This document shows positions 1,759 to 47,814 of a stretch of 64,000 bases of DNA, in pieces. Positions within the stretch are counted from its first letter, which is position 1. Each line of letters begins with the position of its first letter. The stretch is from the IMG/VR virus record IMGVR_UViG_3300030118_003002, positions 1-64,000 of that record; one strand, given 5' to 3'. Under the pieces are notes generated by a model. The model was not told the origin of the DNA. It made no database searches and saw nothing but the letters and a program-made list of their open reading frames with translations. Source of the stretch: a virus. The translations under genes were made by a program, and so were the position numbers.

Positions 1759-3408
1759 ATGGCTGATGGCAAGAGGCGATTTTCGTTTAGGCAATTATTT
1801 AGGCGTTCAACTCCCAAACCTGCTGATAGACAGATATACAACATGGGTATTCAAGAAAGACAGAATAACTACATGATGACTGCGCCTATCATTTATTCTA
1901 TGGTTCAACAATCAGTTATTGTTAGAACCTGTATTACTCAATTGAAACAGGAAGTGTATAGGAGAGGATATGTTTGGGAAAAGGCATACGATTCTATATG
2001 CAAAAGTTGTGGTAAAAAACACAACAGACCTGTAACTCAATGCTCAAGATGTGGTTCAGAAGATTTGAAGATGCCCGATGTAAAGCAATTAGAATATGCT
2101 GAAAAGTTCCTAGAAGGATATGTTAACCCATCAGAACAATTATTCATAGATGTATTGAAAGAATTAGAAGACGATTTGAATACTATGGATGATGCATATA
2201 TTGTTCTTGTTAAAGAATACTTTATTGACGGTAATGGTAAAATTAGAATGCACCGTATCAAAGAAGTATTTAGAGGCGACCCTGTAACCATGTTTATCTA
2301 TGCAGATGAAGATGGAGTAAAGGGAACAAAAGGATTTACTTGTATTAATCATAGAGATGTATTGCATACTGAACCTCATCATTCTTGTGAACAGTGCGGA
2401 GGCAATTTATATCCTGTTCATTATGTTAATAGAGCGAATGGTGACGACCAATATTTCTTAGAAGGGGAAGTATTACACTTTAGTAAATACAGTCCTAGCC
2501 GTCTTTATGGTTTCTCTCCTGTAATTACATTATACAATCATATTATGACTCTTATTGCTATGGAGAATTATGTCAATTCAGCATATACTAAGAGCAGAAT
2601 GCCAAGAGGATTGTTGGCAGTTCAAACTCGTAATTTAGATTCAATGAGAGCCTTTTGGCGTGGTGTTAAAGAGAAGATGGAGTCCGACCCTCACTTTATT
2701 CCTGTTATGGGTGTTGAATCAGATAGTGGCGGTAAAGGTGCTATTGAATGGATTAAGTTCATGGACAGTCTGAAAGAAATGGATTATATGTCTGTAAAGG
2801 ATGATTTAAGAGATAGGATTTCAGCATTCTATGGTGTCAGTAAAGTTTTCATGGCTGATAACACTACAAGCGGTGGTTTGAACAATGAAGGTATGCAGAT
2901 TCTAGTTACTAATCGTGCAGTTCAAATGGCGCAGAATGTGTATAATAATTATGTATTCCCTTACTTAGTTAAGCAATTTGGAATAACAGATTGGGTTCTA
3001 AAACTTCCTCCATCAGAAGAAGAAGATGAAATTGCTGAATTAAGGAAAAGAGAAATAGAAGTCAATATTGCGGCTTCTATTAAGAATTTAGGATTTGAAG
3101 TTGATATGGATGAAGAAGGTAACTTTACCTTTGAAAAACCAGAACCCGTTGAAGGTGAAATGGGAGAAGGCGGTAAAGAAGATAAACCGGCTGAAAAAGA
3201 CCCATATGCGGGAACAAACATTGATGCATCACAATTAGGACAAATGCAAGAACAGGCATTAGCGGCAGGTTCTAAACCACAGGAAAATCCCCCAGCCACA
3301 AGGAATAAAGCCTCAATGAATGTAGGGCCAGATAAGCGAATGTCAGGATTACCAGCAGAAGCAGGTAATCAAAATGTGGATAAAAGAACAGAAAGGAGAG
3401 TTGGTTGA
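1759..3408 (+). CDS. portal protein with Zn-ribbon insertions
   Basis: Portal-like motifs (EVLHF..SP..LYGFSP, ISAFYGV...NNEG), 549 aa, first large gene of head module. Confidence 0.9.
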   Translation: MADGKRRFSFRQLFRRSTPKPADRQIYNMGIQERQNNYMMTAPIIYSMVQQSVIVRTCITQLKQEVYRRGYVWEKAYDSICKSCGKKHNRPVTQCSRCGSEDLKMPDVKQLEYAEKFLEGYVNPSEQLFIDVLKELEDDLNTMDDAYIVLVKEYFIDGNGKIRMHRIKEVFRGDPVTMFIYADEDGVKGTKGFTCINHRDVLHTEPHHSCEQCGGNLYPVHYVNRANGDDQYFLEGEVLHFSKYSPSRLYGFSPVITLYNHIMTLIAMENYVNSAYTKSRMPRGLLAVQTRNLDSMRAFWRGVKEKMESDPHFIPVMGVESDSGGKGAIEWIKFMDSLKEMDYMSVKDDLRDRISAFYGVSKVFMADNTTSGGLNNEGMQILVTNRAVQMAQNVYNNYVFPYLVKQFGITDWVLKLPPSEEEDEIAELRKREIEVNIAASIKNLGFEVDMDEEGNFTFEKPEPVEGEMGEGGKEDKPAEKDPYAGTNIDASQLGQMQEQALAAGSKPQENPPATRNKASMNVGPDKRMSGLPAEAGNQNVDKRTERRVG

Positions 3409-8119: not shown

Positions 8120-11059
8120 ATGCCTAAATCCGGCCTTCTATTTGAGAAGAAGGGTAACGCTTCTAATCAAATACTTCAATTGTTTGAAAGAGTTAGGGTT
8201 GCCTATCTTTCTGCAAGAACCGACCCGAAAGAGTATGGTTCAAAATGGAGAAGTGCTATTGAATACATCAAAGAAGAATATGATGATTCGGGGAAGTTTG
8301 GAGAAGAATTGAAACGCTACATTGATGATAAGGATTTGAATAATGAAGATGCTTCCGATGTAACTACTACTATTGCTGAAAAGATATACGAAGCAGTAAA
8401 AAAACTTCGATATGCTTCTGATGAAGTTTCTGACCCTTTTGCTAAACACTTCAAAGATAATGTTCTTGAAGCGTTATTAGAATCACCGGAAACAATGGTT
8501 AAATTCTTGCATTATGCTATGAGAAATGACAATAAAGCACTTAATCCATCCATTTACAGCGTTAAAGACATGAAACCTGACACCATTACGGATGGTCTTA
8601 TGGGACTTGACCTAGAAGTGGATGATATTCCCCTCTATATTATTGAGCATTATGGGGATGGAAAAGACTCAAAGAAGGTGGAAAAGAAAGTTAAGTCTGC
8701 TATGGCTATGTTAGAACTATTATTCTTTTCTAAACACAATGAAGAAGATTGGGAAGAGTTAGAAGATATTGACATGGAAACTGATACACCTAAAAAAATG
8801 ATTGAAAAATCAGAAACAGAAAAGGGTAAGACAGATTTCATTACTCCTAACAAACCTATGTATAGAATATTTGACATTGAAGACATGGAAGAGTTAAAAG
8901 GATTTAGCGGTGAATATATTGTTCAAGAAAAATATGACGGTATGAGAATACAGGTTCATAAAATAGACAACAAGATTAAAGTTTATTCCTATAATGAAAA
9001 AGATATTACTGATAAATGTAAAGAAATTGTTGAAGAAATGAAGAAGAAACACTTTGGGGATTGTATTCTAGATGGTGAATTAATATTATTTGATGGAAAG
9101 GATGCACTACATAGAGCAGACACTATTGCTCATGTGTTTAAGGGTAAATATCCCGATGCTAAACTAAAAGCACATATGTTCGACATTATGCGACACAATG
9201 ATAAAAATATTGCAGATGAACCTTTGAGTGATAGATTGAACACAATGTTCAATAATTATTCTGTTCATTCGAGTGAATATCTAAACTTCCCTTCTAAGAA
9301 AGATACTCGATTAGCGGATTCGATTAAAGAAGTTGAACAGTATTCAAAAGAAATAATGGATATGCCTACTGCCGAAGGTGTAGTCATTAAAGATTCAACT
9401 TCCACATATTACATAGGGACTAAGAAAAATCCTAAATGGATTAAATGGAAGAAATTTGTTGATTTAGATTTAATTGTATTAGATAAAAAGAAAACTAAAT
9501 CTAAACTTTATTCATATACATTAGGGGCTGGACCGGCTGATGAAGGACAAGAAATTAATGGTCTTAAATATATGAATGTAGGAAAAGCATTGAATACTAA
9601 AATATCTGTTGATATTGGAGATATTGTTCGTGTAAAAGTTGATGAGGTAAAAAAGAAAGGAGATGCTTATTCGATTTATTCTGCTAAAGTAATAGAAGTT
9701 CCGGAAGTGGAATATCCTGATAAATTGGTCACACTTGAGTTGTTATCTAAAGATACAAAGAAATCTTTGAATTACGATGTAAAAGCATTAGAAAAGGGAG
9801 TAAGTGTTACTGATTATATTCACGGTGAAACTAATGTTATTATTAAAGGTGACATGGATGGGTTTACTATTTACGGGTTTGATGAAAGTAACTTAATGTC
9901 TAAAAATGCTTTAGCGAATTTAGATGAATGGAAAAGTCAAGCAGAAGCGATAATGAAAACAAAACAGTCTAGATTAACTGTTGCGGCTTTTCAACATCTA
10001 AAAGAAAGAGGTGCAAAAACCCCTAAAGAGTTACATGATTTCTTAGTTAAAAATCATTCTAAAATATATGAAGATATTTTAGAAAGTAAAATGAATAGAC
10101 TTTCTAATTGGATGGATGAAAGAGATGGTATTTCTTTTGATAAGAAAGAAAAGAAATTAATTGCAGACCCCGATAAGATTATGCAAGATGAAGAAGAAAT
10201 TAAAAAATCCTTTTTACTCAAAAATCAAAGACTTCTCCAAGAAGCAAAAGAATTAGAAGAAGAAGTTACTATTAGTGCTGATGCTGATATGGAAGGAGAC
10301 TGTTGTTCTAAACTTAAATCAGACTATTTATCTATACTTAAAGAAAGTTTAGATACATTAGTAAAAGAGTATGGTGGTTATAAAAAATATGTTAAAGCAC
10401 GAAGCAATCCTTCAAACACATATGATTATGCCCCGACATTAGAAGAAGAACATGAAGAAATGGAAACAACTGTTTTAGACTTGTCTTGTGAAGAATTAGT
10501 CAAGGAATTGACTGAATTCTTTGAAGAAGAAGGCTATGAAGACATAGGACAACTTCTCGATGAATATAAAAATTGTCAGTTCGGAGAAGGATTCTCAGAT
10601 AAATATGCTATGTTAAAAGCATATAAGACTCCAAAAAAACTTCAAGAGGGTAATTTCAAATTATATCTAAGGGATGATGAAAACTTAAACTTAGTAATTA
10701 AGTTAGAAGATGAAACACTTAATTGGTTAATAGACTTAGAAAAAGACGATGATATATTCAGATTGTTTGGAAAGGCGAATAAATACCCTGCCCAAATAGC
10801 AACTAACATTTCCAAGAAGAAAATTATAGATTCTGGAGAAATAGGACTCGGTGTTCAGAAAGAAGGCTATCACGAATATTTCTTGAGAGGTAATAAGTTT
10901 GAAACTAAACTGCACTTTAGAGTAATAGAAGTGGATGGAAAGGAAATGTGGTTGGCTTGGACAGGGTATAAACAGAAGCCAGCAGATAAAGACACTGATG
11001 CTGGATTATGGAATATTTACGAAGATAAGTATAAAAAATTGCCACTTCCACCTAAATGA
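8120..11059 (+). CDS. lig: multidomain ATP-dependent DNA ligase in the head module
   Basis: Motif I QEKYDGMR, III ILDGEL, IIIa MFDIM, IV EGVVIK, V WIKWK, OB domain; extra N- and C-terminal domains. Confidence 0.9.
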   Translation: MPKSGLLFEKKGNASNQILQLFERVRVAYLSARTDPKEYGSKWRSAIEYIKEEYDDSGKFGEELKRYIDDKDLNNEDASDVTTTIAEKIYEAVKKLRYASDEVSDPFAKHFKDNVLEALLESPETMVKFLHYAMRNDNKALNPSIYSVKDMKPDTITDGLMGLDLEVDDIPLYIIEHYGDGKDSKKVEKKVKSAMAMLELLFFSKHNEEDWEELEDIDMETDTPKKMIEKSETEKGKTDFITPNKPMYRIFDIEDMEELKGFSGEYIVQEKYDGMRIQVHKIDNKIKVYSYNEKDITDKCKEIVEEMKKKHFGDCILDGELILFDGKDALHRADTIAHVFKGKYPDAKLKAHMFDIMRHNDKNIADEPLSDRLNTMFNNYSVHSSEYLNFPSKKDTRLADSIKEVEQYSKEIMDMPTAEGVVIKDSTSTYYIGTKKNPKWIKWKKFVDLDLIVLDKKKTKSKLYSYTLGAGPADEGQEINGLKYMNVGKALNTKISVDIGDIVRVKVDEVKKKGDAYSIYSAKVIEVPEVEYPDKLVTLELLSKDTKKSLNYDVKALEKGVSVTDYIHGETNVIIKGDMDGFTIYGFDESNLMSKNALANLDEWKSQAEAIMKTKQSRLTVAAFQHLKERGAKTPKELHDFLVKNHSKIYEDILESKMNRLSNWMDERDGISFDKKEKKLIADPDKIMQDEEEIKKSFLLKNQRLLQEAKELEEEVTISADADMEGDCCSKLKSDYLSILKESLDTLVKEYGGYKKYVKARSNPSNTYDYAPTLEEEHEEMETTVLDLSCEELVKELTEFFEEEGYEDIGQLLDEYKNCQFGEGFSDKYAMLKAYKTPKKLQEGNFKLYLRDDENLNLVIKLEDETLNWLIDLEKDDDIFRLFGKANKYPAQIATNISKKKIIDSGEIGLGVQKEGYHEYFLRGNKFETKLHFRVIEVDGKEMWLAWTGYKQKPADKDTDAGLWNIYEDKYKKLPLPPK

Positions 11060-11079: not shown

Positions 11080-11105
11080 AAAGAAATTACAAGGGGTTGA
11101 AGAAC

Positions 11106-12344
11106 ATGAGCATTAGTGTCATGGCAACAAGGAATGATGATTTCAGAATTCTAAAAAGCGATGATTTAATGATTGGAGGATATGCAAGTATTGAAATCGT
11201 GGATAAACAAAACGATTTAATTACATTAAATGCATTAAAAACCGCAGTTACAAAATTCATGGAAGATAAAAAATTCAGAAATGTAATGACAAATCATTCA
11301 AATGTTCAAGTTGGAGAAGTTGTGGACTCTTATAGAGATAAAACCGGAAAACTATGGAAATCGGAAGTTGATGATGTAGGATTCTTTGTAGTAATTAAAT
11401 TAAGAGATGACATAGAAAAAGCCAAAGAGGTTGGGAGAGGTATTCGCAAAGGCACATTAAGGTCTTTTAGCATAGGTGGACAGGCATTACAAAAAGTAAA
11501 GAAAAGCCACGGTGAATTAGGGGAGTATAACGAGATAAGCAAATTAGAACTCCATGAAGTAACAATATGTGAAAAAGGCATTAATCCCGAAGCGAAGTTT
11601 GATATTCTGAAACAAGATATTGGAGATGAAAAAATGAGTGATAAACTAGAAAAAGCACTAAATGAATTAGATACTCTTCTAAAAGAAGTTGAGAGTCTAA
11701 AGGGAGATGATGAGGAGTCTATGGATTCCAATTCTGAAATGATGGAAGAAAATGCTGAATACATGGAAATGGCTGATGATGGCGATATGGAGAGAGGCGA
11801 TTACATGAAAGGCGATGATGAAGATGATGAGAAAGAAGGAACACACCCTTCTTACAAGGATGATGCAGAAAAAGCATACCTAAGAACACTTGATGGAGCA
11901 GGTAATCAAATTGGTGAACCAGCAGATAGAATCGTCATTAACAACGGAAAGCCAACTGCTTCCGATATGCCGGTTGTAAAAGCATTTGAAAACAATGAAT
12001 TTGATACACTAAACCTATCAAATGCAAACATTGAGAAGGCTTACGAAGCATTCCGTCAAGAAAAACTTGAGGAACTAGCATACGATAACCTTCGCAAGTC
12101 TTTTGAAACTCGCTTTAGCAGTGAAGTTTCAAACCGTGAGAACATTCTCGCAAAGTCACAATATGACGCACAGGCTGAAATTGCTTCCATTAAAGAAGAA
12201 TTTAGCGAACTAAGAAAGTCTCTTACTGCTGAAAAGGAAACTATCCTAAAAGCACAAGAAGAGTCAGTAATTAAAATGCCATCAATTGATGATATTGCAT
12301 CAATGGAATGGAGCGATATTCACAAAATGGTGAACAATATTTGA
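11106..12344 (+). CDS. HK97-type prohead protease fused to C-terminal scaffold
   Basis: IGGYAS..IVDKQND, H in MTNHSN, RSFSIGG, LHEVTIC..GINPEA; acidic coiled-coil tail; directly upstream of MCP. Confidence 0.9.
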   Translation: MSISVMATRNDDFRILKSDDLMIGGYASIEIVDKQNDLITLNALKTAVTKFMEDKKFRNVMTNHSNVQVGEVVDSYRDKTGKLWKSEVDDVGFFVVIKLRDDIEKAKEVGRGIRKGTLRSFSIGGQALQKVKKSHGELGEYNEISKLELHEVTICEKGINPEAKFDILKQDIGDEKMSDKLEKALNELDTLLKEVESLKGDDEESMDSNSEMMEENAEYMEMADDGDMERGDYMKGDDEDDEKEGTHPSYKDDAEKAYLRTLDGAGNQIGEPADRIVINNGKPTASDMPVVKAFENNEFDTLNLSNANIEKAYEAFRQEKLEELAYDNLRKSFETRFSSEVSNRENILAKSQYDAQAEIASIKEEFSELRKSLTAEKETILKAQEESVIKMPSIDDIASMEWSDIHKMVNNI

Positions 12345-12354
12345 GGTGATTAAG

Positions 12355-13689
12355 ATGACAGGATATATTAACACAATAGCAGATTTAGAAGCACAAACAT
12401 ACGGAATGAATCTTCCAGCCGGAAATGCCTTGCTAAAGCAAGCAGGTATGGTTGGTGGAATACACACAGGACATGACGGTTCTCCGTCATTTAGCGGTTC
12501 AGCCGTTTCTGATGTGTCAGCACTATACAATGTCGTTTATGGACAAAAAGTTTGGTCTATGCTAAACCGTGAAGTAAACGCACTTTCAATGATTTCAAAG
12601 AGACCATACACTTCAAGCGGTTGGAGAGTATTAAAGAGCAGACCTGCTGGTGGTAGCGGTAATCTATTTACTGTTGATAAAGCAAATGTTTCCCTAACAT
12701 TGGGAGAATTGGGTTCAGACACACCAAGAGCAGATTCTATTGGTGGTGTTCCAGAAAATGCTGGACTTTCAACTGCACAAGATGGATTAGGGCCAATTGC
12801 GCCAACATACGCTCAATTGAACATGAGTCCTAAAGTCGTTGCACATCAATTTGATTTCAGCGAATTGGCTATGGAAATGGCACAGATTGATGATGGAATT
12901 GGCGATATTAGAGCGCAAATGCGTGAAGATATGGGTAAGCACCATGCTGAAGTGCAGAACAAAATGCTTGTAATGCCACTAGAGTTTTATGGTGAATCAG
13001 CACTATTGCCAAATATTGCTAACAATTACACTTCGCTATTGAAGGTTATTACTTCAAAGGCTGAATTAGACCTATTGGATGCACAATCTTCTCTAATGAC
13101 AGATGGTGCTACTGCAACAAATGTAAGCCACATTTACGGAACTAACCGTGATAGTGCTTCTTTCCTTGATGCAGAAGTGGATGCAGGTTCAACTTATGCG
13201 GCAACAGGAGTTAGAGCATTAACTCTAACTTTGCTAAATAACATGGTTCGAAATCTAAGACTTGCTGGTGGTTCACCAAAGGTTATTCTAACCGGATATG
13301 ATACCATTCAAGCACTTGCAGACCTATTGCAGAGTCAAGAAAGATTTATGGATAGAAAGGAAATTGTTCCAACAGTGAACGGTGTTCGTGGAACAAAGGG
13401 TCAAGAAGTAGGATTTAGAGTAGCAACATACTACGATATTCCGCTAATTCCTGTAAAGGACATGACAACTACCGGACTAGCATCATCTAAACTATCAGAC
13501 CTACTATTCCTTGATACAGACCATCTATGGCTATCAGTTATGAAGCCAACTCAATACTTTGAAGATGGTATCGCTAATGGAAACCCATTCGGTGTAGGAA
13601 CATTAGGTAACAGGGCTTTGTATAGAACAATCGGTGAAGTCGGTTGTTCTTTCTTCAAGGGTCAAGGAAAAATTACTAACATACAGTGA
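12355..13689 (+). CDS. major capsid protein (HK97 fold)
   Basis: Position after protease; about 445 aa; YGQKVWSMLN, GGSPKVILTG, YYDIPLIP, QGKITNI features typical of archaeal caudoviral MCPs. Confidence 0.9.
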   Translation: MTGYINTIADLEAQTYGMNLPAGNALLKQAGMVGGIHTGHDGSPSFSGSAVSDVSALYNVVYGQKVWSMLNREVNALSMISKRPYTSSGWRVLKSRPAGGSGNLFTVDKANVSLTLGELGSDTPRADSIGGVPENAGLSTAQDGLGPIAPTYAQLNMSPKVVAHQFDFSELAMEMAQIDDGIGDIRAQMREDMGKHHAEVQNKMLVMPLEFYGESALLPNIANNYTSLLKVITSKAELDLLDAQSSLMTDGATATNVSHIYGTNRDSASFLDAEVDAGSTYAATGVRALTLTLLNNMVRNLRLAGGSPKVILTGYDTIQALADLLQSQERFMDRKEIVPTVNGVRGTKGQEVGFRVATYYDIPLIPVKDMTTTGLASSKLSDLLFLDTDHLWLSVMKPTQYFEDGIANGNPFGVGTLGNRALYRTIGEVGCSFFKGQGKITNIQ

Positions 13690-14701: not shown

Positions 14702-14705
14702 TAAC

Positions 14706-14724
14706 AACCGGCATATTAAATAGT
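14706..14724 (+). promoter_or_regulatory. putative promoter (AACCG-N4-ATTAAATA)
   Basis: Intergenic; same spacing as the 11059 element. Confidence 0.45.
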
Positions 14725-14753
14725 CAGCGTTAGCCTCGCTGTATTTAGAAGGG

Positions 14754-15062
14754 GTGATGAACATGGGTTATTCATGCAGGTCAAGCGGTGTTTTAGGTGC
14801 TAGCAAATTAATTGTTACAGGAAGAACAAAACTAGTTAGCGTTCACGCTGCTCTTTTTGTTACGGGCGGAGACGCAGTAACCATTAATGTATTCGATGGA
14901 ACTGATAATACAGGAACTAAAATAGCCATGATTTCAAGTGCAACCAACGGTTATCATAATTTAGAATATGATATGCATGGTGTTCTGTGCAATACAGGAT
15001 TATTCCTAGAAGTAGCAGAAGCCGGTTCATCCACCGTTAATGTTTCTATTGAATTTAACTGA
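14754..15062 (+). CDS. small beta-sandwich virion protein (putative)
   Basis: Alternating hydrophobic beta pattern; start could be 14757 or 14763. Confidence 0.6.
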   Translation: MMNMGYSCRSSGVLGASKLIVTGRTKLVSVHAALFVTGGDAVTINVFDGTDNTGTKIAMISSATNGYHNLEYDMHGVLCNTGLFLEVAEAGSSTVNVSIEFN

Positions 15063-15071
15063 GGTGGTCGG

Positions 15072-15461
15072 ATGGCGGCACTAAATCAAGATACTAGACT
15101 AATTATGACTATACTATTCGTTGGCACTGTTAGCGGTGCTAATGTATATTTTTATGCTAACTACGGAGTCAATTTCCCATACACTACATTAGCCCATGCG
15201 ACACTGTTTGGTCTAATTACTGTTGGTGGAATTATGTGCCTAAAGGCTATCTTTGATTTATCACTTAATGATAAGATAGAATTGAGATTGTTAGATAGAA
15301 GAATTAATGCTTATTGGGAGCGCAGGGCGAGAGATGAGCAACAAAGACAAAAACTTACAGAAACTATGAAGCAATACAATACTACTGTTATTGCACCAAG
15401 CACCACAATGTATGAAACCGAAAACACAATTTCAAATGACTTTTTGGCTAAACTACAATGA
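15072..15461 (+). CDS. membrane protein, 2 TM helices plus cytoplasmic coiled coil
   Basis: LIMTILFVGTVSGANVYFY and ATLFGLITVGGIMCL segments. Confidence 0.75.
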   Translation: MAALNQDTRLIMTILFVGTVSGANVYFYANYGVNFPYTTLAHATLFGLITVGGIMCLKAIFDLSLNDKIELRLLDRRINAYWERRARDEQQRQKLTETMKQYNTTVIAPSTTMYETENTISNDFLAKLQ

Positions 15462-15470
15462 GGTGGTTGA

Positions 15471-15686
15471 ATGTTTAATGACATAATGGGTTTTACAGAA
15501 ACCGACTATGTTTATAATCAAAGCAGAGCGCATTCTGCTGATATGTTTTTTATGAAGATGAGAATGTGGTTTTGGGTCACTTGCGCCTCTTTGTCATTTT
15601 TCTTCTTAGGAAACATAATGGGAGTTTTTGACATAAATGTTGTTGGTTGGCTATTAGACAACCTTTGGCATTCTTGGGAGGTTTAA
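15471..15686 (+). CDS. small membrane protein
   Basis: MWFWVTCASLSFFFLGNIMGVF hydrophobic segment; GAGGTGG SD. Confidence 0.7.
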   Translation: MFNDIMGFTETDYVYNQSRAHSADMFFMKMRMWFWVTCASLSFFFLGNIMGVFDINVVGWLLDNLWHSWEV

Positions 15687-15688
15687 TC

Positions 15689-16351
15689 TTGTCAGTGATG
15701 ACAGGTTTCGCTATTCTTGTTGGAGAAGCGATGATAGGTTTTTGGAAAAAAATACATGCAATTAATTTTGGAGTTTATGGCGCAACAATGGTAGGTAAAA
15801 CAACATTAAGCCATCAATTGAGAACAAGAGGAGAAGTGCAGCAAATTAATGAAAGGACTGTTGGATTACATAGACCAACAAGAAAAACAATTAAGATAGA
15901 TGGAGATATGCACACAATAAGAAGTTCTGATATAGGAGGAGAAGCGATATATTGGAAAGAATGGGCTAAAGACATGAGAATGAGAAAACCCAAATACATT
16001 ATTTTTATGATAGACCATAGACATTTAGATAGCGGAGTTAATTTAGACCATCAAGTAGCGTGGAAGTTTTTGGTTGATGTTATTATTAATCATAGATGGC
16101 CGAATGGTAAAAAGAAAAAAGAAAAGGACTATCCTTTAGCAGTAGGAATATGGGCTAATAAATATGATATATGGGGAGAAAAACATAAATCAGAAAAGTC
16201 TATTGAAAAACATGAAATTTTTGAACCTTTCAAATACGGAATGAGGCAACTAAATGATAAAGGAATACCGACATTCAAATACATAGTATCAGCAAAATCA
16301 GACCCCGAAATGGTGTATAAAGGAATCACTACAATGATAAAGGACTATTGA
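15689..16351 (+). CDS. Ras-superfamily (Arf/Sar-like) small GTPase
   Basis: G1 GATMVGKTT, G2 RTVG, G3 DIGGE, G4 NKYD, G5 SAK; hydrophobic N-terminal helix; GGAGGT SD before TTG 15689. Confidence 0.85.
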   Translation: MSVMTGFAILVGEAMIGFWKKIHAINFGVYGATMVGKTTLSHQLRTRGEVQQINERTVGLHRPTRKTIKIDGDMHTIRSSDIGGEAIYWKEWAKDMRMRKPKYIIFMIDHRHLDSGVNLDHQVAWKFLVDVIINHRWPNGKKKKEKDYPLAVGIWANKYDIWGEKHKSEKSIEKHEIFEPFKYGMRQLNDKGIPTFKYIVSAKSDPEMVYKGITTMIKDY

Positions 16352-16356
16352 TGATT

Positions 16357-16716
16357 ATGTGGAAGATGATTCTAAAAACAAACCATCTAGATAGTATTAA
16401 GGAAACTGCCGAACAATATTTTTTGAAGTTAAATAGTGGGGAGAAAGTAAAGATTTTTTTGACCAAACATTTTAGTGACAATTTACAATCAAGATTCCCC
16501 GATATTAAAATAAAAAGAATCAAAAACGCTATCGAAAGAAAACTTAATCGAGGACAACTACCGGAAAAAACTACAATCATTGTAAAATTAGTTAGGCAGA
16601 AAAAGAAAGACGCATATTTAGTAATTAAAAGATATAGCAGAAATATTCATGTAAAGACAATTAGACATATGCGAGAAGACCAAAAGAAACGATTTTCAAT
16701 AATAGAAGAAAACTGA
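16357..16716 (+). CDS. basic hypothetical protein with WxxILK tag
   Basis: MWKMILKT; C-terminal VKT motif. Confidence 0.65.
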   Translation: MWKMILKTNHLDSIKETAEQYFLKLNSGEKVKIFLTKHFSDNLQSRFPDIKIKRIKNAIERKLNRGQLPEKTTIIVKLVRQKKKDAYLVIKRYSRNIHVKTIRHMREDQKKRFSIIEEN

Positions 16717-16725
16717 GGAATAAAT

Positions 16726-17406
16726 ATGGCATATCAACAACCGAACCTAATAGGAACTAATGTTTCAATAACTCCTAATTCAAGCAACCCAAGTCAATTA
16801 AATTCATTTTCTATGAATAAGTTTTTACCTAAACTGCAACAATTTAGAGCAGGTGGAAACATAACAGAATACAAATATGATGCTATTAAACCTAAAAAGC
16901 AACTAAAAGAAATAAAAAAGATTCTATTACCGGAAAAGAAAAGTTTTCTCAAAATAAAATACGGTTATAAATTTAATTTCAAAGATGTATGTATTGTTTG
17001 TGGAACACATCATGTTTGGGAAGCCGGAGATTTTCTAAGACCGCCTATTCCTTTAGATAAAGTTACCAAAGGAAGGCCGATGAGAGGCACTTATTGTCCT
17101 AAACATGCAGCAATACACAAGCAGATGGAAATGCTGCAACAACAAATACTTGCTGATGAACATGGTTTAGACTTCAAGGCGTTTATTCCTAAATTAAAAA
17201 CTCCTCAACTTATGAAGAAAACTCCTCTTGTAACCCTAAGTAAAGAAGATGTTGCTAGTCTCACTTCAACCGGATGGCTTATTAAACCACCCACCTTAGC
17301 GGATAGTGAAACGACTATGGCAGAAATTGTCCGTTTGGTTGTTGAAATAGGATTATCAACGGAAAGATTAAATTATCTTTTAAGTAGCAACAATAAGGAG
17401 GAATGA
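16726..17406 (+). CDS. hypothetical protein with Zn-binding motif
   Basis: CIVC...CPKH. Confidence 0.7.
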   Translation: MAYQQPNLIGTNVSITPNSSNPSQLNSFSMNKFLPKLQQFRAGGNITEYKYDAIKPKKQLKEIKKILLPEKKSFLKIKYGYKFNFKDVCIVCGTHHVWEAGDFLRPPIPLDKVTKGRPMRGTYCPKHAAIHKQMEMLQQQILADEHGLDFKAFIPKLKTPQLMKKTPLVTLSKEDVASLTSTGWLIKPPTLADSETTMAEIVRLVVEIGLSTERLNYLLSSNNKEE

Positions 17407-18062
17407 ATATGGGATTTTTAGGAACAAGTAATGGGGCAGTAATGGGTGCAGTTCAAGCACAATCAGAACAACAATTCAAAAATGTTAGTAATTTACTTTC
17501 ATTACAAGAAAATCATGTTGAGGAGTTTTTCCAATATCATGGTCAACAATTTTTTGCTGCATTAGAACAATTGATGGAAGATGTAGTAGCAAGGTCGGTT
17601 AGTAAGATGCTAACTCAATTAGTATTTGTTCAAGATTCAACATCGGGAACAATGAAATTACAATCCGGTGCTTTGGCAGAATTTGAAAGAATTACAAAAG
17701 AAAACATTGATTTAGATTTAACAAGACTATTAGATTCAGCAATCAATACAGAAGTTATCAATCAAAGAAAGATGGCAAAACAACAATACCTAGAATCTCA
17801 AGGGTTCTCAACACCAAATGCACAGGTTTCTGCTGGTGCGGCAATTGCTGGTGTAACAGGTAATATGCAACAGTATAACCAAGTAAATAGCGCAGTAAAT
17901 AACGGTTCGGGCTACCCTGTCCCTCCAAATGGAACAGACGGATATGGCAGACCTTATTGGATTGATGCTAATGGTCAAATGTCATATGAACCCCCACAAA
18001 GCGGTTTAGGATTAGGTTCAGCAATACAAAAAGGTGCGGCTTGGGCTAAATGGCTAATGTGA
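17403..18062 (+). CDS. Gln/Gly-rich protein with amphipathic C-terminus
   Basis: ATGA coupling; ends GLGSAIQKGAAWAKWLM. Confidence 0.7.
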   Translation: MNMGFLGTSNGAVMGAVQAQSEQQFKNVSNLLSLQENHVEEFFQYHGQQFFAALEQLMEDVVARSVSKMLTQLVFVQDSTSGTMKLQSGALAEFERITKENIDLDLTRLLDSAINTEVINQRKMAKQQYLESQGFSTPNAQVSAGAAIAGVTGNMQQYNQVNSAVNNGSGYPVPPNGTDGYGRPYWIDANGQMSYEPPQSGLGLGSAIQKGAAWAKWLM

Positions 18063-21710: not shown

Positions 21711-23360
21711 ATGTCAGCAGAAGATATATTTTTAGGAAGTCAAGCAAGTTTAACGATGATTCCCGAAGTGGATTTATACATACCGTTAGACCATAGCAAT
21801 AGCACAGGAAGCGGAGAAAATTCAGGAAACACAAATACCATAAGAGCGCATAATGATTGGGAAGCGCACTTTTTGATGGTAAATAATTTATACACAGGAT
21901 GCACTGTTGAATTATATGCAACAGGCGCACCAACAACTGTAATTTCAACTCATACTATTTCCTCAAATACTGAAAAAGACATAGTTCTCTCTCCCGACCC
22001 AAGAACAATCGTTTCGGGTGATTTCATCCATATTAGAGGATATGGTGCGCCATGTGTCGGTTTATACACAGGCTCAACTAAAAGATTGAATGCTGATAAT
22101 TGGCTAGGTCTATTAGAAACAGGAACATTCCCTAATCTTGAAGTGGAAATGAAACAATTGAATCTTTCACTTGGAGGTTCAAGAAATTTTACTCATCAAT
22201 ATAAGGGAGTAAAAACTGCTTCCGGTGGTAATTTAGCAGTGATGGCTAATCATGGTGCTTGGCTTTACTATGCTTTAGGTAAATGCACAGAAATTACTGC
22301 TACCTTTGAGGCAAGTAATCCCGCTAACAAACTAACAGGTCATGGTGCAAATACAACAAAAGATGATAGAAGGAATGTTTATCTTGATACTACTAATGGC
22401 GGTGCTGAAACAGGAACGATTACTTCAAGCGAATTTTTGGAACAAGGGCCAATTTTCTATAAAACCGCAAGAGGTTCAAATACATTAGTTCCTCCTTTAC
22501 TACACGGTTTTGATTTGAACACTAATATGGAATTATTGAACAGACCTACATCATCTGCAACAAATGTAGCAAATCCTATCACATATAAGTTTGAAGAAGC
22601 AAACGGGGAAAAACTTCCTTCTTTTGCTCTTGAACAAACATTGGCTAAATCTAGCACATTGACTACTAGAACTTCTCCAAGCGGGGCTTCGGAAGATACT
22701 ACCTTCGTTAGAATTGCTACCGGAAATAGGGTAAATACATTCACTATGACCGCTAATGAAAATGAAGAAGTTAAAATGACTATGGATTTGAATACAAGAA
22801 CAGTTCATAAATTAGACCAAGACGAAAACTATGAAGCAAGGGGCGGGATAACAGATAATCGCCAATTGTTTAATTTCGAACAGGCCAATAATACTAGCAC
22901 AACTGATAAAGACGCTGAGTTTTTAGAGCCGTTTTTCTTCTCAAGTGGTGTGTTTAGTATCTTTGGGCAACAATTCCTAAAGGTTACTAACCTTACTTTA
23001 ACTATCAATAACAACTTACAAGATAAAAGATATATTGGTATTGGTAACAAAGACATAAAAGAAGGTATTCCCGCACAAAGAAATTATGAAGTTTCATTTA
23101 CTGCTATGGTAACTGATGATAAACTGTTTGAAGAATTGTTTAATGAAACAGAAACAGATAATACTTCTTCAACTCTTCTTACTTTACAATTTGATAAAGC
23201 AAATGGAGAACAAATACTTATTAAATTAGCAGATTATCACCTAAATGCTGCTAACTTTACTATTCCTGAAGATAAAGGGCCAATTACTGTTGAAGGAACA
23301 GTAATGCCTAGAAGTTTAGAATCATGCACAGTTAAAACTCATTGGGTATTGCAGGGGTGA
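21711..23360 (+). CDS. major tail (tube) protein
   Basis: LPSFALE...G..VNTFTM, LTLTINNNL...R.YEVSF tube motifs; upstream of chaperones and TMP. Confidence 0.8.
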   Translation: MSAEDIFLGSQASLTMIPEVDLYIPLDHSNSTGSGENSGNTNTIRAHNDWEAHFLMVNNLYTGCTVELYATGAPTTVISTHTISSNTEKDIVLSPDPRTIVSGDFIHIRGYGAPCVGLYTGSTKRLNADNWLGLLETGTFPNLEVEMKQLNLSLGGSRNFTHQYKGVKTASGGNLAVMANHGAWLYYALGKCTEITATFEASNPANKLTGHGANTTKDDRRNVYLDTTNGGAETGTITSSEFLEQGPIFYKTARGSNTLVPPLLHGFDLNTNMELLNRPTSSATNVANPITYKFEEANGEKLPSFALEQTLAKSSTLTTRTSPSGASEDTTFVRIATGNRVNTFTMTANENEEVKMTMDLNTRTVHKLDQDENYEARGGITDNRQLFNFEQANNTSTTDKDAEFLEPFFFSSGVFSIFGQQFLKVTNLTLTINNNLQDKRYIGIGNKDIKEGIPAQRNYEVSFTAMVTDDKLFEELFNETETDNTSSTLLTLQFDKANGEQILIKLADYHLNAANFTIPEDKGPITVEGTVMPRSLESCTVKTHWVLQG

Positions 23361-46016: not shown

Positions 46017-46147
46017 TCAAACAACTCCTTATGACCGCAATTATTACATTGTAATTTTGCTTTATCTTTCATTAATCTATAACCTACTTTTGGTTTCTTA
46101 TACCAAACTATTTCCATTTTACCCTTCTTACAATAAATGCATTTCAT
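46013..46147 (-). CDS. 44-aa Zn-ribbon microprotein (not in ORF track)
   Basis: MKCIYC...LQCNNCGHKE; ATG overlaps the polB N-half stop. Confidence 0.65.
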   Translation of the reverse strand: MKCIYCKKGKMEIVWYKKPKVGYRLMKDKAKLQCNNCGHKELFE

Positions 46148-47814
46148 ATTTTCATCTCCTTTGCTTTGAAGGCAGCCAATCTAATTGCTTCTCTAGCACT
46201 AGCAGTAATACTAGCCGCTAAATCAGCATCAGCCCAACTAAAACCGGTATAGCCAATGATTCCGTAAAATGAAGCCATTAGTCTCTTTACTGCCATTTGA
46301 TTGTTATACCACTTGATATAGTCACTGTTATTATTGTTCTCTCTCGCCTCACGCATAAGTCGCTTATATTCATTTCGGAGTTGCTTTAACTCTAAAACAG
46401 ATTGAGGTAATAAGCCTAGTTTATCAGTTTTATAGAATCTATAATCTGATTCAGTTACTTCCGAGAAATCTCTAGGAGTAAGAAGATTGACCGATAATTC
46501 AGTTACTTCATTAGATTTAGTCTCCCATGAAATGTTTCTAGCAATCATCATAGCAGGGTATAGACCTGCATAATCAAAAGCCGCCACATTAAGATGTAGT
46601 CCGTTAGTGTTTTCACTTAATGGGTCATAAATCATAGCCCCTTGATAGGACTTCTTTTCTGCTTTCTTATTACCTGTTGGTGCTTTCCACCAAGCATTAC
46701 GCATGAAGTAAATAGAACCCATATGACTTGCATAAAAACAAGCATCAAATGGTGCTTTCAGTAATCTTTGTAGTGCAATAATCGCTTCGCTACAATAATT
46801 AGTTTCATCTATTTCAACAATTAATTCAACATCTTTTAGAGCATACTGCAAATAAGTTTCAGTATCTTCTAACCAAGCCCTACGATAGAATTCGTTTGGG
46901 TCGGGAAACTTTTCTGAAACTAACTTCTTCTTGTTAAGTAAAGATTCAGATACATAGTCCAAAGATAAAGAAGGTAATGTTCCTCTTTGCGAGTCATTCC
47001 ATTGTCTTTCAAAAGCCATGTCTAATGAGAGGGTTATGCGACCCCCTATGGGTTGTTCTATTGGTGAGAACCCCTTTTCACCTTTAGTATATTTGAAGCC
47101 CTTCTTAGTCTGTTTAACACCATCTATGCGGTTAATCGGTGACATTCTATTAGGGTTAATTCCTAAAGCACAACACCTTTCAAGCAATTTAGGTATATCA
47201 GCAAAGTTACCGAACCAAGCAATTAGCATATCGGGGTCTTTGTCTATCATTGTATTAATGAAATCTTCAAGCATATGTTTTTCATTACGACAATAATATA
47301 CATTATTTATCTCTAAAGAATTATCAAATATGTCTATTGGACATTTTTCAGTAGGAAACCATACCCATTGATGGTATTCTTCATCATAATTATCATACAT
47401 TACAATAGTAGTAATTTCATTATGGTGTTCTCCTCCTTGTTGCCATTCCATATCCCAATACCATTTACGCATTTTATACTCCGGCATTTCCGAAATACAA
47501 TCAACTGCATATCTAAATGTATATGGAACATCTGCTTCATATGTTTGCTTAAACATTTTTCTAGCAGAAAAAACATCAAAAGAGTTTTCAACATATACTC
47601 TCTTTAATCTATCACCATCTAGATTCACCCATTCTCCTCTTTCATATTCAAACTCTCGTTTGATATACTTAGAAGGAGAATATGTTGTATGTTCCTTTTC
47701 GTTTTCCTTCACATAAAAGTAGGGTCTAAATCTTTCCAATTCGAATTTTTTCTCGTTATTCTCTCTCCAAGATTTGTATATGTGTTTTCCATCTAAACAC
47801 CTACTAATTATCAT
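46144..47814 (-). CDS. polB: family B DNA polymerase, N-terminal subunit (exonuclease + motifs A, B)
   Basis: YEADV, WDME (ExoI), YALKD (ExoIII), FDYAGLYP (A), KRLMASFYG (B). Confidence 0.9.
   Translation of the reverse strand: MIISRCLDGKHIYKSWRENNEKKFELERFRPYFYVKENEKEHTTYSPSKYIKREFEYERGEWVNLDGDRLKRVYVENSFDVFSARKMFKQTYEADVPYTFRYAVDCISEMPEYKMRKWYWDMEWQQGGEHHNEITTIVMYDNYDEEYHQWVWFPTEKCPIDIFDNSLEINNVYYCRNEKHMLEDFINTMIDKDPDMLIAWFGNFADIPKLLERCCALGINPNRMSPINRIDGVKQTKKGFKYTKGEKGFSPIEQPIGGRITLSLDMAFERQWNDSQRGTLPSLSLDYVSESLLNKKKLVSEKFPDPNEFYRRAWLEDTETYLQYALKDVELIVEIDETNYCSEAIIALQRLLKAPFDACFYASHMGSIYFMRNAWWKAPTGNKKAEKKSYQGAMIYDPLSENTNGLHLNVAAFDYAGLYPAMMIARNISWETKSNEVTELSVNLLTPRDFSEVTESDYRFYKTDKLGLLPQSVLELKQLRNEYKRLMREARENNNNSDYIKWYNNQMAVKRLMASFYGIIGYTGFSWADADLAASITASAREAIRLAAFKAKEMKI

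Follow-up and report, generated by a model that had tools for sequence, protein, structure and literature searches.

What does a small GTPase do among the virion genes of a tailed archaeal virus? The question is raised by a stretch of 64,000 nucleotides (the window), positions 1 to 64,000 of the virus record IMGVR_UViG_3300030118_003002, in which a GTPase gene lies in a string of genes at positions 15072 to 18062. An initial annotation had read the whole string as one module, with an Arf-like GTPase in an operon with membrane proteins. We found that five of its genes formed a cassette whose order was strictly kept in magroviruses. In this order, the genes encode a protein with two hydrophobic, putatively transmembrane (TM), segments (TM1), a protein with one such segment (TM2), the GTPase, a Cys/His protein and a Q-rich protein (Table 1). 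The explanation that we favor, with a probability of about 45%, is that the five proteins constitute a GTPase switch that acts late and at the membrane, with egress as its most plausible purpose.

A five-gene cassette is conserved in order across three virus groups

The order of the five genes was examined in related loci from IMG/VR. It was kept in all of the 110 loci that had enough flanking sequence, 49/49 in the closest group and 61/61 in a second group whose GTPase was about 59% identical to that of the window. A third, distant magrovirus group, with a GTPase 31 to 35% identical, was represented by 266 loci, and the nine that were inspected all had a recognizable five-gene order (9/9). 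The co-conservation of the neighbors, on which the initial annotation had made its proposal depend, thus extended to a deeply divergent group. The operon that it had described was matched by a tight co-directional gene string, in which genes overlapped or were separated by gaps of 2 to 11 bp. The proposed module had to be narrowed to five conserved genes, since the open reading frame (ORF) at 16348-16716 is an unrelated insertion (see below). Within the closest group, the median identity was 82% for the GTPase and 84% for the capsid protein, with 46 to 71% for the cassette neighbors.

In the distant group, the TM1-like protein had 170 to 196 aa, the TM2-like protein had about 80 aa with one TM segment, the Cys/His protein was longer, and the Q-rich protein ended in a similar tail. 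The cassette of this group included an extra small two-TM protein, for which no homologue was found in the window genome. The capsid protein was 44 to 49% identical to that of the window, and these viruses are magrovirus relatives. Their cassette lay about 24 kb from the capsid gene. Because the gene order was kept despite this distance, the cassette travels as a unit.

Homologues of the GTPase numbered 329 in a large protein collection, and many of them were on contigs of 85 to 96 kb. Among 185,579 prokaryotic species genomes (one per species), a single match was obtained, on a contig binned as Maricaulis (L242; NZMJ01000024.1, 12.2 kb). The GTPase encoded there was 80% identical to that of the window, and the contig is almost certainly a magrovirus contig that was mis-binned. 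When the GTPase was searched by tblastn, there was no match among 50,697 phage records, a collection that may lack near relatives. At the level of similarity searched, the GTPase family was confined to viruses. Recent capture of a host Arf or Rab was ruled out, as no close cellular homologue was found among the species genomes. No GTPase is mentioned in magrovirus papers (PMC5434244; PMC10160649, including its supplements; PMC11706807), in the ICTV profile of Aoguangviridae (PMC10768690) or in a survey of archaeal tailed viruses (PMC8651126). The cassette is without a description in the searchable literature.

Two further features of the distant group were observed beside the cassette. The cassette lay immediately 3' of a giant ORF (L116:19-6108, L086:48-6107 and L121:21-6071), which encodes about 2000 aa, contains several C-x2-C pairs and had no PHROG match. 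The gene after the cassette encodes a CxxC...CxxC protein. In the window genome (G000), the homologue of this protein is encoded at 84346-84990, outside the window.

Table 1. Coordinates of the cassette genes and of other features of the window
Feature	Position	Strand	Description	Basis
TM1	15072-15461	+	129 aa; hydrophobic segments at about 10-28 and 39-66, then a charged helical part and, at the C terminus, a short conserved motif	Hydropathy
TM2	15471-15686	+	71 aa; one hydrophobic segment at about 34-62	Hydropathy
Small GTPase	15689-16351	+	220 aa from TTG 15689 (217 aa from ATG 15698)	Motifs, homologues, model
Cys/His protein	16726-17406	+	226 aa; orphan, always 3' of the GTPase gene in three virus groups	Alignment
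Q-rich protein	17403-18062	+	Q/N/G-rich orphan; likely start ATG 17409 (MGFLGTSN); helical N-terminal half	Alignment of 20 orthologues
Inserted orphan ORF	16357-16716	+	Basic, 119 aa from MWKMILKT (open frame 16348-16716, 122 aa)	Outside the conserved cassette
Intergenic element	14716-14741	+	TTAAATAG box at 14716-14723, then hairpin CAGCG 14725-14729/loop/CGCTG 14737-14741	Comparison of loci
Portal	1759-3408	+		Pfam/PHROGs
DNA-ligase fusion	8120-11059	+	979 aa; ATP-dependent DNA ligase domain	Pfam/PHROGs
Prohead protease	11097-12344	+		Pfam/PHROGs
Major capsid protein	12346-13689	+	SU10 type	Pfam/PHROGs
Tail tube-like protein	21711-23360	+		Pfam/PHROGs
DNA polymerase (PolB)	46144-47814	-	Family B	Pfam/PHROGs

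The GTPase has a Ras-like fold and intact nucleotide motifs

The open frame of the GTPase spans 15647-16351 on the plus strand. Since its homologues were mostly 217 to 222 aa long, the true start should be either TTG 15689 or ATG 15698. The TTG codon lies 2 bases past the stop of the preceding gene, with GGGAGG 6 nt upstream, and is most likely the start; the ATG is the alternative.

The initial annotation had reported the complete set of nucleotide motifs G1 to G5, and this was borne out. The motifs are GATMVGKTT (G1), the Thr in RTVG (G2), DIGGE (G3), NKYD (G4) and SAK (G5). They were invariant across 21 relatives at 72 to 86% identity, and a motif scan found all five in 80/80, 80/80 and 67/80 loci of the three virus groups (227/240). 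The AlphaFold2 model (mean predicted local distance difference test [pLDDT], 92.7; predicted template modeling score, 0.88) showed a Ras-like fold after a helix at residues 2 to 19. With G1 to G5 in order on such a fold, the protein is a small GTPase of the Ras superfamily (TRAFAC class, P-loop). Its conservation and the structure model excluded a misannotated ORF or a pseudogene.

The replacement of the G3 Gln by Glu, which the initial annotation had singled out, was found throughout the lineage of the window but is not peculiar. The residue after D-x-G-G was Glu in 80/80 of the closest loci, Gln in 42 and Glu in 38 loci of the second group, and Gln in 46, Glu in 15 and Asp in 6 loci of the third. 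It toggles between Q, E and D both between and within magrovirus lineages and was hydrophobic in none (loci L001-L241). The position thus stays polar and able to hold the water that attacks GTP, which is compatible with a GTP-hydrolyzing enzyme. The Q61E variant of Ras hydrolyzes GTP faster than the wild type does. In nearly all members of the family, an Arg immediately precedes the G2 Thr. A switch I Arg acts as an arginine finger in G-alpha and MglA, and by analogy, the Arg of the viral protein might be a built-in arginine finger. The GTPase also carries a basic insert, W-P-N-G-K-K-K-K, ahead of strand 5.

The GTPase is Arf-like and very divergent

We examined which kind of GTPase this is by fold and by profile. 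In the structural ranking of the model, ranks 1 to 34 were all Arf or Arl proteins; the best Foldseek template modeling scores were with Arf6 (0.82 and 0.81), and those of Rabs were 0.65 to 0.75. The single model resembles GTP-bound Arf structures. An exhaustive HMMER search collected 71 representatives of the family, including full-length relatives at 59% and at 29 to 40% identity. When the profile of the whole family was compared with PDB sequences, the best match, spurious ones aside, was Arl3 (1e-12), followed by G-alpha, Arl1, Arf1 and Sar1; the top 60 consisted of Arl3, Arl1, Arf1, Sar1 and G-alpha chains plus a few spurious P-loop matches (RecA and Der). This profile contained distant singletons that match Pfam Arf themselves. 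It was therefore rebuilt from the magrovirus lineages alone, and 8OUN now ranked first (8e-7), ahead of Rab33B (9e-5) and Arl8 (4e-4). The 8OUN structure is that of GerdArfR1, an Asgard Arf-related GTPase (10.1101/2024.02.28.582541). Thus, both by profile and by fold, the GTPase was nearer to Arf/Arl/Sar than to Rab/Ras/Rho.

Other comparisons pointed in the same direction. In a language-model atlas, the clusters nearest to the GTPase were viral, and after these came Arf-like clusters from bacteria and an Arf cluster from Asgard archaea. Details of the Arf type were visible in the alignments: switch I contains T-V-G, D-x-G-G-[QE] is followed a few positions further on by an invariant Trp, and strand 4 is followed by an Asp. 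The distant, nonmagrovirus relatives P0161, P0178 and P0188 do reach Pfam Arf (best E value, 1.9e-15). The automatic naming of the Joint Genome Institute calls some homologues "GTPase SAR1 family protein." Pfam SRPRB was touched by 6/23 distant family members and was not matched by the window GTPase itself. In NCBIfam, the window GTPase had only the generic small_GTP domain, under the cutoff, and phmmer with the single sequence found nothing among PDB sequences at an E value of ≤10. The singleton relatives P0175, P0187 and P0191 were not located in viral or metagenome contigs. Taken by its sequence and its model, the protein is best described as a very divergent Arf-like GTPase that no curated model files as a member of Arf. 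The Arf-like character proposed initially was therefore upheld by profile and fold ranking and not by the Pfam Arf model.

The N-terminal helix had been likened to that of Arf and Sar1 in the initial annotation. A hydrophobic helix is present, with a Kyte-Doolittle value of 1.6 to 2.3 over 18 to 19 residues, a hydrophobic moment of 0.08 to 0.29, an invariant Glu and K-K directly after it. It is uniformly hydrophobic and looks like a signal-anchor as in SR-beta; the helix of Arf, Sar1, ArfR and ArvA is, by contrast, short and amphipathic. Members of the Arf family (Arf1, Arf6, Arl1, Arl3, Arl6, Arl8 and Sar1, and the Asgard ArfR structures 8OUN and 8OUM) share with the viral protein the Ras-like domain with G1 to G5, T-[IV]-G in switch I, D-x-G-G-[QE] with the Trp in switch II, the Asp after strand 4 and an N-terminal helix, which binds membranes in Arf. 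The identity is only 15 to 22%. The helix of Arf is short and amphipathic and folds back on the core, whereas that of the viral GTPase has about 18 uniformly hydrophobic residues with the conserved Glu. The viral GTPase further differs from Arf in the G3 Glu (in this lineage), the Arg before the G2 Thr, the insert ahead of strand 5 and the SAK at G5. It is also virus encoded, with no known guanine nucleotide exchange factor, GTPase-activating protein or coat nearby.

Four partner proteins accompany the GTPase

Hydropathy agreed with the initial annotation in placing two membrane proteins upstream of the GTPase. The architecture of TM1 was kept in an alignment of 20 orthologues from three virus groups. 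Compared with what is expected of holins, TM1 and TM2 fit in size, number of TM segments and charged tail; neither gave a family match. No holin or endolysin had been recognized initially. For endolysins this held within the two lysin families tested, Amidase_2 and Phage_lysozyme, which had no match across the whole 96-kb genome; as to holins, the statement is weaker than it had been put, as the topology of TM1 and TM2 is holin-like.

The Cys/His protein contains C-x2-C ... C-P-K-H with the spacing C-x2-C-x31-C-x2-H, which is in line with the Zn-binding protein proposed initially. Only C89, C124 (in G121-T-Y-C124) and H127 were invariant across groups, and the second Cys was not conserved. Its structure model was of moderate confidence (pLDDT, 65). 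As judged from the alignment, it is a plausible candidate for a Zn-binding partner of the GTPase.

The N terminus of the Q-rich family is conserved as M-G-[LIF]-[FL]-G-T-S-N. Its C terminus, which had been called amphipathic, is a conserved, Gly-rich, Trp-bearing tail (G-L-G-L-G-S...W-A-K-W-L) whose amphipathicity is modest (moment, 0.27). Pfam searches over the 20 orthologues gave stray matches only (e.g., Phasin_2 in 2/20). The TM2 of the distant group begins with M-G-R-I-F-K-T-P. The Gly-2 starts of the Q-rich family and of the distant TM2 resemble eukaryotic myristoylation sites. None of the cassette proteins has a PHROGs family.

The cassette resembles known systems in part

The nearest functional precedent is ArvABC (OapABC), an operon of Haloferax volcanii and other Euryarchaeota/DPANN. 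The precedent that the initial annotation had invoked, a small GTPase tied to vesicle formation in haloarchaea, is real: Haloferax ArvA is an Arf-like GTPase that drives vesicle formation, and deletion of its N-terminal helix abolishes vesicles (PMC10927574). Its operon partners are ArvB (DUF2073) and the Zn-ribbon protein ArvC (DUF2072) (PMC10927574). Like it, the viral cassette has an archaeal setting, an Arf-like GTPase with an N-terminal hydrophobic helix, an operon that includes a Cys-containing, presumed Zn protein, and a proposed action at the cytoplasmic membrane. The viral cassette differs in having two integral membrane proteins and the Q-rich protein besides. No SepF-like candidate for ArvB was recognized in the viral genome, for which no separate ArvB search was made. 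The likeness to ArvABC is one of arrangement and not of demonstrated homology.

An Arf-related G domain anchored by an N-terminal TM segment is also found in SR-beta; the cassette differs in its viral, late-gene setting and has no SR-alpha-like partner. Holin cassettes and virus-associated pyramid proteins (PVAP) share with TM1 and TM2 the small size with one or two TM segments, the charged cytoplasmic tail and the position adjoining virion genes, and no other exit system is recognizable. The differences are that TM1 and TM2 have no sequence or family match to them, that no endolysin of the families tested accompanies them, and that a GTPase and two soluble orphans are fixed in the viral cassette, as in no described holin or PVAP system. 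Small GTPases have been found in other viruses and elements. Arf GTPases encoded in an integrated element of Asgard Atabeyarchaeia are ordinary Arf members (PMC11529989). Both these and the mimivirus Rab (PDB 5xc5) are clear, recently acquired members of host families. Unlike them, the window GTPase is old, virus restricted and highly divergent, belongs to a tailed prokaryotic virus and has fixed partners.

A membrane-directed switch for egress is the favored explanation

In the explanation that we favor, the GTPase would be tethered to the cytoplasmic face of the host membrane by its N-terminal hydrophobic helix, beside TM1 and TM2. It would be produced together with TM1, TM2, the Cys/His protein and the Q-rich protein, with its membrane-seeking tail, from the late strand that carries the virion genes. 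The five proteins would form a membrane-bound machine, and the GTP/GDP state, perhaps set by the Cys/His protein, would determine the time or place of the partners' action on the membrane. TM1 and TM2, which are holin-like, would be the membrane-active parts, and the Cys/His and Q-rich proteins would serve as regulator and/or effector. The most plausible task is the release of progeny by a membrane lesion, a pyramid-like exit or a vesicle-type exit.

Release is the most economical task because no exit system is known for tailed archaeal viruses (PMC10791045), because Amidase_2 and Phage_lysozyme are absent from the genome, and because TM1 and TM2 resemble holins in size, in topology and in their charged tails. 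A more specific proposal is that the cassette is the exit machine of tailed archaeal viruses, in which the anchored GTPase times or localizes rupture or vesicle-type release through TM1, TM2 and the two soluble partners. This proposal is tentative and, in our estimate, on the unlikely side.

Several findings weigh against the favored explanation. The cassette sits in the block of virion genes, which fits a role in the virion or in assembly equally well as one in lysis. As for the GTPase, Pfam Arf (PF00025) had no match anywhere in the genome at an E value of ≤0.1, the GTPase included; its weak Pfam matches were to Roc (E value, 0.004) and MMR_HSR1 (0.01), both under the cutoff; and the margin of Arf over Rab in the fold ranking was about 1 Z unit, which is a ranking and no proof. 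The four partners had no match in Pfam, PHROGs, PDB sequences or folds. An ArfGAP-type finger in the Cys/His protein was rejected, as it has neither the C-x2-C-x16-17-C-x2-C-x4-R pattern nor the invariant Arg nor a Pfam match. The OapC/ArvC model (PF09845) found nothing in the 96-kb genome, while matching three archaeal control genomes, and had no match in the Cys/His family at an E value of ≤1. Finally, the atlas look-alikes of the Q-rich protein were clusters partly annotated as T7_gp14 (0.82) and P22_gp7 (0.81), below the threshold for a lead; atlas scores of <0.9 are often due to chance.

The alternative that survives best, although we consider it improbable, is that the proteins are ejection or pilot proteins delivered with the virion. 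They would travel inside the head or neck and enter the host envelope at infection. TM1, TM2 and the Q-rich protein would then form or prime a conduit for DNA, with the GTPase at work on the membrane in early infection. The location of the cassette between the capsid and neck genes would suit such a cargo, as would the position of the distant-group cassette immediately after the giant protein, a kind that is often an internal virion protein. Other enzymes also seem to be packed in the head module of the genome, e.g., the ligase fusion before the protease, and T7_gp14 and P22_gp7 were the nearest named look-alikes of the Q-rich protein, as a lead only. This last point is countered by the low atlas scores and by the Pfam search, in which none of the 20 Q-rich orthologues matched T7_gp14 or P22_gp7. 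Moreover, the cassette moves independently of the capsid gene, and a folded nucleotide switch with a membrane anchor would be an unusual capsid cargo. A capsid-targeting tag has been suggested in M-W-x-x-I-L-K, with which 0/5 of the conserved proteins begin.

A little less probable still is a site of assembly or packaging at the membrane, where the GTPase and its membrane partners would organize head-tail assembly or packaging with no breach of the membrane. Small GTPases of the Arf and Rab type are common markers of membrane assembly sites. The cassette is placed among morphogenesis genes, to which it is tightly coupled in two virus groups, and the conservation of the GTPase equals that of the capsid protein. 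Against this, we know of no need of tailed viruses for membranes in their assembly, the cassette of the third group is about 24 kb from the capsid gene, and its proteins have no similarity to known scaffolds, chaperones or connectors.

The least probable is a take-over of the host at its membrane by a viral counterpart or competitor of ArvA- or SR-beta-type systems that alters vesicles, superinfection or the insertion of membrane proteins: the order of the GTPase and Cys/His genes is analogous to the pairing of a helix-bearing GTPase with a Zn-ribbon protein in the ArvA operon (PMC10927574), and an anchor helix on an Arf-like G domain is the arrangement of SR-beta, whose Pfam model some distant members touch, but OapC had no match, the Cys/His protein has no sequence link to anything, the main ArvA-bearing lineages listed are Halobacteriota, Methanobacteriota and DPANN, with Thermoplasmatota/Poseidoniales not named (PMC10927574), and orientation and packing with the late genes speak against an early role.

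Insertions and an intergenic element mark the gene string

The ORF between the GTPase and Cys/His genes of the window had no counterpart in the 80 closest loci, where these two genes are 12 bp apart. Because it is absent from these loci, this ORF is a genome-specific insertion outside the cassette. Insertions of about 370 to 600 bp were present at the TM2/GTPase or the GTPase/Cys-His junction in the window genome and in several others (550 to 600 bp in L015, L026, L073 and L074). The cassette junctions seem to be landing sites for orphan genes that carry a start of the kind seen in the window ORF, M-W-x-x-I-L-K. In the distant group, inserted ORFs had A-W-x-x-L-K near their start (L129:7733-8164 and L157:7710-8078).

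Upstream of the gene string, where the initial annotation had put a putative promoter at 14706, the 52 bp at 14702-14753 are the only real noncoding gap between the capsid and neck genes. Elsewhere between 13689 and 20961, genes overlap or are 2 to 20 bp apart, and other apparent gaps on the plus strand contain small ORFs. Most of 27 diverse loci had, at this position, a TTAA(N)AG box with a hairpin immediately after it. The hairpin of the window has a 5-bp stem. In other lineages the stems differ yet stay paired (GAGGC/GCCTC, GTGGAG/CTCCAT, GAGGG/CCCTC and GTTGAT/ATCAAC). Since the differing stems remain paired at the same site across loci, the element is conserved with compensating changes. 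It may act as a late promoter next to a structured region, or as an attenuator that follows the highly expressed capsid genes. The gene that comes directly after the element, at 14754-15062, encodes no membrane protein and does not belong to the cassette of the distant group.

The window comes from a complete magrovirus genome

The source record has 96,234 bp and is rated 100% complete. The window has a G+C content of about 34%; its plus strand carries virion genes up to about 38 kb, and its minus strand carries replication genes. The GTPase of the window was 77% identical to gp088 of Poseidoniales virus YSH_150918. Because of this match, the complete record and the genes for portal, protease, capsid, tube and PolB (Table 1), the sequence is assigned to a magrovirus with a complete genome, that is, to a tailed virus whose hosts are Marine Group II (Poseidoniales) archaea. 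The DNA-ligase fusion lies in the head module, immediately 5' of the prohead protease gene, which is an odd site for a replication or repair enzyme.

Implications for archaeal viruses

In the surface ocean, magroviruses rank among the most abundant viruses, and to our knowledge, their hosts are not cultivable. A virus-restricted, strongly conserved GTPase tied to membrane proteins provides a concrete, clonable candidate for the exit step of tailed archaeal viruses. If the cassette is indeed their exit machine, it would be a GTP-gated egress system without a counterpart among the lysis systems of bacteriophages. The protein would also be a rare Arf-like membrane GTPase outside eukaryotes and Asgard archaea. 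Together with ArvA, it would testify to the great age of GTPase-driven membrane work among archaea and the viruses that infect them. Its four partners, which belong to no known family, might bring to light new small-GTPase regulators or effectors.

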